The translations under genes and the position numbers were made by a program. 64,000 nt of DNA, taken from NCBI GenBank assembly GCA_019058275.1, contig JAHLVW010000103.1, positions 66,186-130,185 of the forward strand. The letters are read 5' to 3'. Position 1 is the first letter of the stretch, and the number at the start of each line of letters is the position of its first letter. The notes under the pieces are model-generated. The model saw nothing but the letters and a program-made list of their open reading frames with translations. It was not told where the DNA came from and did not search any database. Shown here in pieces: positions 58,469 to 58,638 of the stretch. Source of the stretch: Candidatus Heimdallarchaeota archaeon (GTDB lineage Archaea > Asgardarchaeota > Heimdallarchaeia > JABLTI01).

Positions 58469-58638
58469 GTCGTTGGACGAAAGTTCCGATGCAAGATCGG
58501 TTTGAAAGGCCTGTGGTGTATATGTCGAGTCTTCAGCGAGATACTCAATCAGTAGGTCCTTCCCCCTTCAGCGTGTCATTACCGAACTGGACTTCTAGCC
58601 CTTAAAGAGGAAGTGTGTGCAAGAATTCTACATTTTTT
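58469..58638 (+). repeat. 23S 3'-end repeat, longest copy (~170 bp)
   Basis: GTCGTTGGACGAA...TTTGAAAGGCCTGTGGTGTA...GCGTGTCATTACCGAA...GAAGTGTG...TTCTACATTTTTT aligns from 36470. Confidence 0.97.

Follow-up and report, generated by a model that had tools for sequence, protein, structure and literature searches.

Why should an archaeal chromosome carry, behind an intact 23S rRNA gene, a row of displaced pieces of that gene's 3' end, and from whose gene were the pieces copied? The question arises from a 64,000-nucleotide stretch of DNA (here called the window; G000:C98:66186-130185) in the 4.1-Mb genome (32% G+C, 118 contigs) of a Heimdall-group Asgard archaeon, and in particular from one such piece, at 58445-58617. 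The original prediction, made from the letters of the window, held that these fragments are not decayed host copies and that they came from working 23S genes of relatives or ancestors, so that the row might serve as a record of donor lineages.

The window contains a complete archaeal 23S gene, which matches the full Rfam model LSU_rRNA_archaea with 2339.8 bits; the coordinates of this and the other features are collected in Table 1. The 5' part of the gene is single-copy genome-wide, giving a 23S copy number of 1 for the assembly. An ORF for a LAGLIDADG homing endonuclease (34532-35089, + strand; Pfam match) lies within the gene, presumably in an intron, and this insert explains part of the 4282-nt length as compared with the 2987 positions of the model. 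The two strands of the pre-23S processing stem lie on either side; in the cofold, its basal helix is 11 bp long and pairs CACACTTCTTC, upstream of the gene, with GAAGAAGTGTG, and the same stem also folds in the relatives G006, G008 and G009. The ORFs flanking the 23S gene encode metabolic enzymes. Upstream of it, two adjacent ORFs (26163-27005 and 27117-27794, both +) together make up an aldehyde:ferredoxin oxidoreductase gene; the split could reflect a sequencing error, a frameshift or the recoding of a codon.

Table 1. The 23S rRNA gene of the window, its processing stem, and the displaced copies and cassette parts downstream of it
Feature	Coordinates	Strand	Remarks
Pre-23S processing stem, 5' strand	32265..32312	+	cofold with 36573-36619: -58 kcal/mol
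Sole 23S rRNA gene of the assembly	32303..36584	+	4282 nt; intron with LAGLIDADG ORF; variable expansion segment ~36356-36469; Rfam and Pfam
Resident hairpin ACGGA-UACAAGA-UCCGU	36486..36502	+	pair 36488/36500 is G-C; Rfam structure line, pair list
Processing stem, 3' strand	36585..36619	+	best-conserved part of all tail copies (core -29..-1) and their common right end; profile and cofold
Resident trailer or "head", type B (AGTCCGAGCATCAAT...)	36620..36645	+	one of two recurrent head types after tails
Tail copy, 29 nt	37398..37426	+	BLAST
Tail copy, 48 nt	42322..42369	+	BLAST
Tail copy, 117 nt	52727..52843	+	BLAST
Tail copy, 80 nt	53819..53898	+	BLAST
Tail copy closing the preceding cassette	57546..57621	+	96% identical to resident; BLAST
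Head and cargo of the fragment's cassette	57622..58444	.	TumE-family toxin ORF 57765-58088 (-); 77-aa partner ORF 58142-58375 (-)
Displaced 23S tail, 173 nt	58445..58617	+	worn copy of 23S ~36447-36584 plus stem strand; right arm of TumE cassette
Hairpin, C-G allele CCGAT-GCAAG-ATCGG	58486..58500	+	direct reading
Type A head of the following cassette (TGCAAGAATTCTACA and T-run)	58618..58638	+	possibly a terminator
Tail copy, 81 nt	61883..61963	+	TCTTC-AGCGAG loop deletion in common with the 58445-58617 tail; BLAST, alignment
Tail copy, 62 nt	62556..62617	+	BLAST

Downstream of the gene, the window holds eight copies of its 3' end, all on the + strand. A BLAST query consisting of the final 340 nt of the gene finds about 50 partial copies in the genome as a whole, the remaining ones being on five small contigs (C35, C38, C75, C80 and C99) and co-oriented within each contig; since the window stops at a contig end, these five probably continue the row and make up the remainder of it. 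Neighbouring copies, or tails, are separated by 0.6 to ~11 kb of DNA containing one to several ORFs, which may lie in either orientation, and the unit that is repeated is a cassette built of a head, a cargo and a tail. Each tail is a copy of the 23S 3' end truncated on its left, and on the right all copies stop precisely at the base of the processing stem, at the last base of GAAGAAGTGTG; their left ends vary, giving copies of 27 to ~300 nt. In a profile of 154 copies with the end motif (of 172 extracted from the genus), conservation is at its maximum at positions -29 to -1 and declines leftwards. Two recurrent heads follow the tails, type A (TGCAGTGATTCTACA) and type B (AGTCCTGAGCATCAAT), both running into a T-rich stretch; type B is the one found behind the resident 23S gene. 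Other cargo in the window includes a defence-like 946-aa protein with Schlafen AlbA_2 and TPR regions (49820-52660, +), a beta-lactamase-family protein (40879-42189, -) and a small RNase III-domain ORF (38294-38656, -).

Tails are present in all 10 of the same-genus genomes searched, with 1 to 25 matches each and several matches in eight of the ten, and in other genera of the class the 23S gene itself is the only match, with the exception of G035. This genome, filed under another family, has seven tail copies on C8, C69, C88 and C12 (L059) along with a ~300-nt fragment of the L070 type described below, and it has no match to the XerA-like recombinase that is considered further on; its tail contigs may be mis-binned, or the arrays may range more widely. 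A search for the core motif on the opposite strand and elsewhere gave only chance matches in coding sequence and a single inverted cassette (C98:55169/56156). This cassette, which encodes a short-chain dehydrogenase (SDR; G000:C98:55169-56180, -), stands alone between two tail sites, ~10-11 kb before the start of the window and ~47 kb upstream of the 23S tail. Homologous cassettes are found within the arrays of G000:C38, G003 and G005, and the lone one appears to mark a secondary landing site or else a part of the array that was translocated.

The fragment at 58445-58617 is 84% identical to the resident 23S 3' end over 150 nt (BLAST, E = 9e-40). Its left end, at ~58445, is placed by alignment with longer tails, and its right end is the base of the processing stem. 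The toxin ORF of the cassette that it closes matches the Pfam TumE family with 3.4e-09. A cassette in G005 (C141) has the same cargo/23S junction and is 80% identical to the TumE cassette across cargo and tail, and the identity of the TumE cassette as a whole to G010:C33 is 69.5% over 853 nt. From pairs of cassettes that share one side and stand in different contexts, it can be seen that each tail descends together with its left-hand cargo and each head with its right-hand cargo, the linkage switching at about -2 to +1 relative to the stem base. Since the tail is linked to the cargo on its left, and the cassette is found in G000, G005 and G010, the tail is part of a mobile unit common to three species; what it records is where the tail of its cassette was formed, not the last donor. 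We consider it likely that 58445-58617 is the right arm of a mobile toxin-antitoxin cassette of the TumE family, 57622-58617, that it was copied from the working 23S gene of another or an earlier lineage, and that it has since travelled and decayed.

One alternative is that the fragment is the host's own former 23S tail, pushed downstream by insertions and decayed in place, so that its seemingly foreign states are ancestral ones. The cargo/23S junction shared with G005, and the way in which tails follow their left cargo across species and contexts, make such an in-place relic unlikely. Nor is the divergence ordered along the array: as the original prediction had noted, tails farther from the gene are not more divergent, the identities of the successive tails being 93, 88, 85, 81, 96, 84, 89 and 97%. 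A tail in G008 that is identical to the resident gene of another lineage and only 92% identical to its own, described below, also speaks against a relic.

Central to the case for a foreign origin was a hairpin which reads CGGAT-ACAAG-ATCCG in the resident gene (36487-36501) and CCGAT-GCAAG-ATCGG in the fragment (58486-58500). Direct reading and the Rfam structure bear this out, the pair 36488/36500 having gone from G-C to C-G. For comparison, resident 23S 3' ends were recovered from G006, G008, G009 and G010, and a further one, by a pattern scan, from L070, a metagenome contig with at least 1.35 kb of 23S running to the contig end and short tails of its own downstream; with G000, this makes six residents. 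(The 23S genes of G002-G005 and G007 are not in their assemblies and hence not in this set; the CTTCCCAC / ACTGCTAG tail family may represent their own allele.) The C-G state is that of the residents of three sister species, G006, G008 and G010, and of L070, and G-C is that of G000 and G009. An in-place relic would be helped by the fact that the C-G hairpin, together with the variant TTACCACC discussed below, is the majority state among residents and could be ancestral for G000. At the 22 columns that vary among the residents, the fragment agrees with L070 in 18 and with its own host in 15, as against 11-13 for the others; the lead of L070 over the host allele, 18 against 15 of 22, is small.

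Could the compensation be accidental, the fragment having decayed at random and its paired changes being without history? Against the host resident, 18 of its 88 structured columns are changed; among its helix pairs, three are compensated on both sides, two have turned wobble and three are broken, and 23 of 27 are still canonical. Three compensated pairs against the host allele are more than expected (P = 0.014) under a null that keeps the substitution spectrum. This null replaced a first one, with changes at random positions, which overstated significance because AT-biased decay favours double transitions from G-C to A-U. When the fragment is compared with the resident consensus, 14 changes are counted, of which 10 are G-to-A or C-to-T, and two compensated pairs are left, both of them G-C to A-U. 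With the allelic swap thus set aside the excess is not significant (P = 0.12), and the covariation expected on the original prediction is not borne out beyond the allele itself. This would suit chance, as would the two to three broken pairs and the shorter tails, in which compensation is at the level of the null and which look simply decayed. The swap, on the other hand, involves two transversions, G to C and C to G, which together produce the exact state of four working genes, and with the excess over the host allele, and the compensated changes of the G008 tail to be described, we regard a chance origin as very improbable.

The part of the original prediction which denied decay has to be given up. 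The 14 changes against the resident consensus are mostly G-to-A or C-to-T, pairs are broken, the loop of the hairpin reads UGCAAGA where all six residents have UACAAGA (an A-to-G change that is decay), and the UUCG loop has a deletion. Most of the changes other than the shared states would equally fit the neutral, AT-biased decay of a relic. At 173 nt, flanked by cargo, with pairs broken and a conserved loop altered, the fragment fails as a working 23S 3' domain. The one-base deletion in the UUCG loop (TCTTC-AGCG) occurs in three tails, at 58529-58539, at 61883-61893 and at ~1230 of L015 (G005:C133), whose cargo is apparently unrelated; this points to an unsampled source allele or to exchange from tail to tail.

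It is hardly credible that the source of the variants is a second 23S gene in this genome, or another strain co-assembled with it to form a chimera. Some room for this is left by the estimated contamination of 6.8%, by the 118 contigs and by the tendency of arrays to fragment assemblies. Against it, the 5' part of the 23S gene is single-copy, the fragment is flanked by cargo that is not rRNA, and the stretch 57597-58618 is covered, with no mismatch, by a Logan contig from a sediment run that is possibly the source sample itself. The second copy that might have explained the variants is absent from the assembly, and with a single 23S gene there, it does not account for them.

A foreign allele can be followed to a working gene in the case of a ~300-nt tail in G008 (C112). 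All of its 115 mature bases (115/115) are identical to the working 23S of L070, and to G008's own gene the identity is 92%; its expansion segment is 84-89% identical to that of L070, where the residents of different species share 46-60%. A near-identical copy of this tail is found in G035:C8. Compared with the G008 resident it has seven changes, which give three compensated pairs, one wobble and none broken, a result reached in 0 of 20,000 placements under the random-position null. Over the residents and long tails together, 10 pairs are changed on both sides, a number that none of 500 shuffles reached and that is far above slid controls. For the 16 informative tails in hosts with a resident 23S, the nearest resident is a foreign one in 10 cases and the host's own in four, with two ties. 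As to the allele at 58469, the best match among 83 genomes of the class is 85%, which identifies no donor, and the exact 31-mer GAAAGTTCCGATRCAAGATCGGTTTGAAAGG has zero matches in the metagenome contig and genome contig collections. The originally predicted origin in relatives' working 23S genes is supported by the swap, which is the allele of G006, G008, G010 and L070, by the agreement with L070 at 18 of 22 columns and by G008:C112, and it stops short of the donor of this particular allele. A tail copied from the allele of another lineage would make the long copies usable as rough labels of cassette origin. Between the residents of G000 and G009, identity is 0.913 over the tail against 0.873 over the gene body, a weak hint of discordance between these two regions.

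Four variants, TTACCACC, CTAGCCCTT, CTTCAGCGTGTC and TCTTCAGCGAG, had been listed as shared between distant repeats, and all four do occur in the repeats for which they were claimed. Their reading as non-resident alleles fares less well. All the other resident genes have TTACCACC, the genus consensus, and the resident of G000, with TTAACACC, is the derived outlier. Two tails of G000, C99:2001 and C35:5767, carry this host-specific TTAACACC and are nearest to the host allele; the existence of such host-derived copies is in keeping with relics. CTAGCCC and CTTCAGCG are found in none of the six residents, yet in many tails across genomes. Variants in the last ~45 nt of the tails are host-specific: GCGAG is present in 19 of 28 tails of G010, as it is in the G010 resident, the tails of G005 and G007 carry ACTGCTAG, and head types differ between genomes. 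This terminal zone of ~45 nt, together with the head that follows, evolves in concert within each host; CTAGCCC falls in the zone and is therefore of no use for naming donors. Because the junction zone is homogenised in each host, lineage information is confined to the distal part of a long tail, more than ~45 nt from the junction. That the array records donor lineages, as first proposed, accordingly holds in a narrower form: most informative tails are nearest to a foreign resident, and a tail marks the site of its formation, with its last ~45 nt uninformative.

How the cassettes are moved is a separate matter. Neither C98 nor the five array contigs has a match to the tyrosine or serine recombinase families (PF00589, PF00239), and Pfam scans of 35 ORFs of the window between 36667 and 63490 found no recombinase. 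(Two serine recombinase matches in the genome are IS607 transposases, located off the array.) Folding like that of attC sites was not seen in single-stranded DNA folds of five + strand and three - strand junctions, with z of -0.13 to +1.05. Elsewhere in the genome, at G000:C55:205722-206777 (-), equivalent to L073:1220-2278, there is a XerA-like tyrosine recombinase of 352 aa, which scores 117 bits against the XerA equivalog cut-off of 220. Its gene lies in a syntenic core neighbourhood, six genomes of the genus have orthologues with 64-70% identity, and in 72 genomes of other genera nothing matches at E ≤ 1e-20. The phyletic range of the gene is that of the arrays, except for G035, and this coincidence makes its product a lead, a candidate for the array enzyme; it may also be simply the ordinary Xer enzyme of the genus. 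By eye, no dif-like dyad was recognised at the junction.

In the sequence of events that we envisage, the formation of the cassette would have included the copying of its tail from a working 23S gene, that of a different or an earlier lineage; the tail, itself without function, would then have been carried along with the cassette from species to species within the genus, decaying on the way, while cassettes would be exchanged by recombination at the tail-head junction. Two routes for this exchange may be proposed. An unlinked enzyme could act in trans, the XerA-like tyrosine recombinase being the lead; or host homologous recombination could take place between tails, which would also homogenise the bases near the junction and would let cassette tails and the working 23S tail swap segments. 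Exchange at a fixed junction does not account for a cassette's owning up to 300 nt of 23S. In four DNA runs of one study, consulted as contigs, the contigs break at each tail, and the joints have only 28-52 nt on their short side, so that excision or reordering is not demonstrated by them.

The principle is familiar from elements that carry the ends of tRNA genes. Genomic islands reportedly accrete in tandem at the 3' ends of tRNA and tmRNA genes, and as in the array, co-oriented direct repeats are then copies of the 3' end of a structural-RNA gene, the gene itself stays intact, the units are stacked, and the repeat copies can differ from the host gene, having arrived with the element. The array differs in its target, the 23S tail with a strand of the processing stem, and in its units, most of which measure 0.6-3 kb and hold a single gene or a few, no integrase having been found in the array; its copies also share the right end and vary on the left, whereas displaced tRNA ends start at a fixed crossover. 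Integrase-less cis-mobilisable elements are known as well, among them the CIMEs of Streptococcus, and archaeal tRNA-gene fragments are left behind by integrated elements. Like sedentary chromosomal integrons and CALINs, the array lines up many small cassettes in one direction, toxin-antitoxin and accessory genes being frequent in them; individual cassettes recur in different orders and with different neighbours in related genomes, and exchange would occur at a junction within the repeat. Unlike them, it has no adjoining IntI, its repeat is derived from rRNA and does not fold as a single-strand hairpin (z ~0), and its cargo ORFs lie in both orientations.

The composite SCCmec islands of staphylococci, located at the rlmH (orfX) 3' end, are likewise stacked elements bounded by direct repeats, many without a recombinase of their own. 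Elements of this type are moved in trans by recombinases encoded elsewhere, the ccr serine recombinases being known; they differ from the array in having a protein gene as target, in being much larger and in that their recombinases are known. Small integrase-less modules are also seen in the Xer-dependent IMEX and in the pdif modules of Acinetobacter plasmids, which are moved by the host's own Xer recombinase; a XerA-like gene with the genus range of the array is present here. The sites of pdif modules alternate in orientation, whereas those of the array are all co-oriented, with no dif-like site recognised at the junction. In the literature searched, no description of a row of rRNA-tail cassettes, or of integration at a 23S 3' end, was found.

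Asgard archaea are the closest known relatives of eukaryotes, and gene flow among them is hard to trace because almost all of their genomes come from metagenomes. Each cassette of the array carries a piece of a slow, structure-constrained marker gene, to which the longest copies add a fast-evolving expansion segment. What can be read from a tail is restricted to the stretch lying beyond ~45 nt from the junction, and is further limited by decay of the copies; within these limits, the match between G008:C112 and L070 is direct evidence of cassettes crossing species boundaries, and it provides a way to ask from where. A further and quite tentative suggestion is that the cassette row acts both as a vehicle and as an archive of rRNA-gene pieces, its tails recombining with working 23S genes and so passing segments of the 3' domain and the stem between Asgard species. 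If that were true, the long tails would preserve alleles, including expansion segments, of unsampled lineages, and the array would be a readable record of past gene flow.
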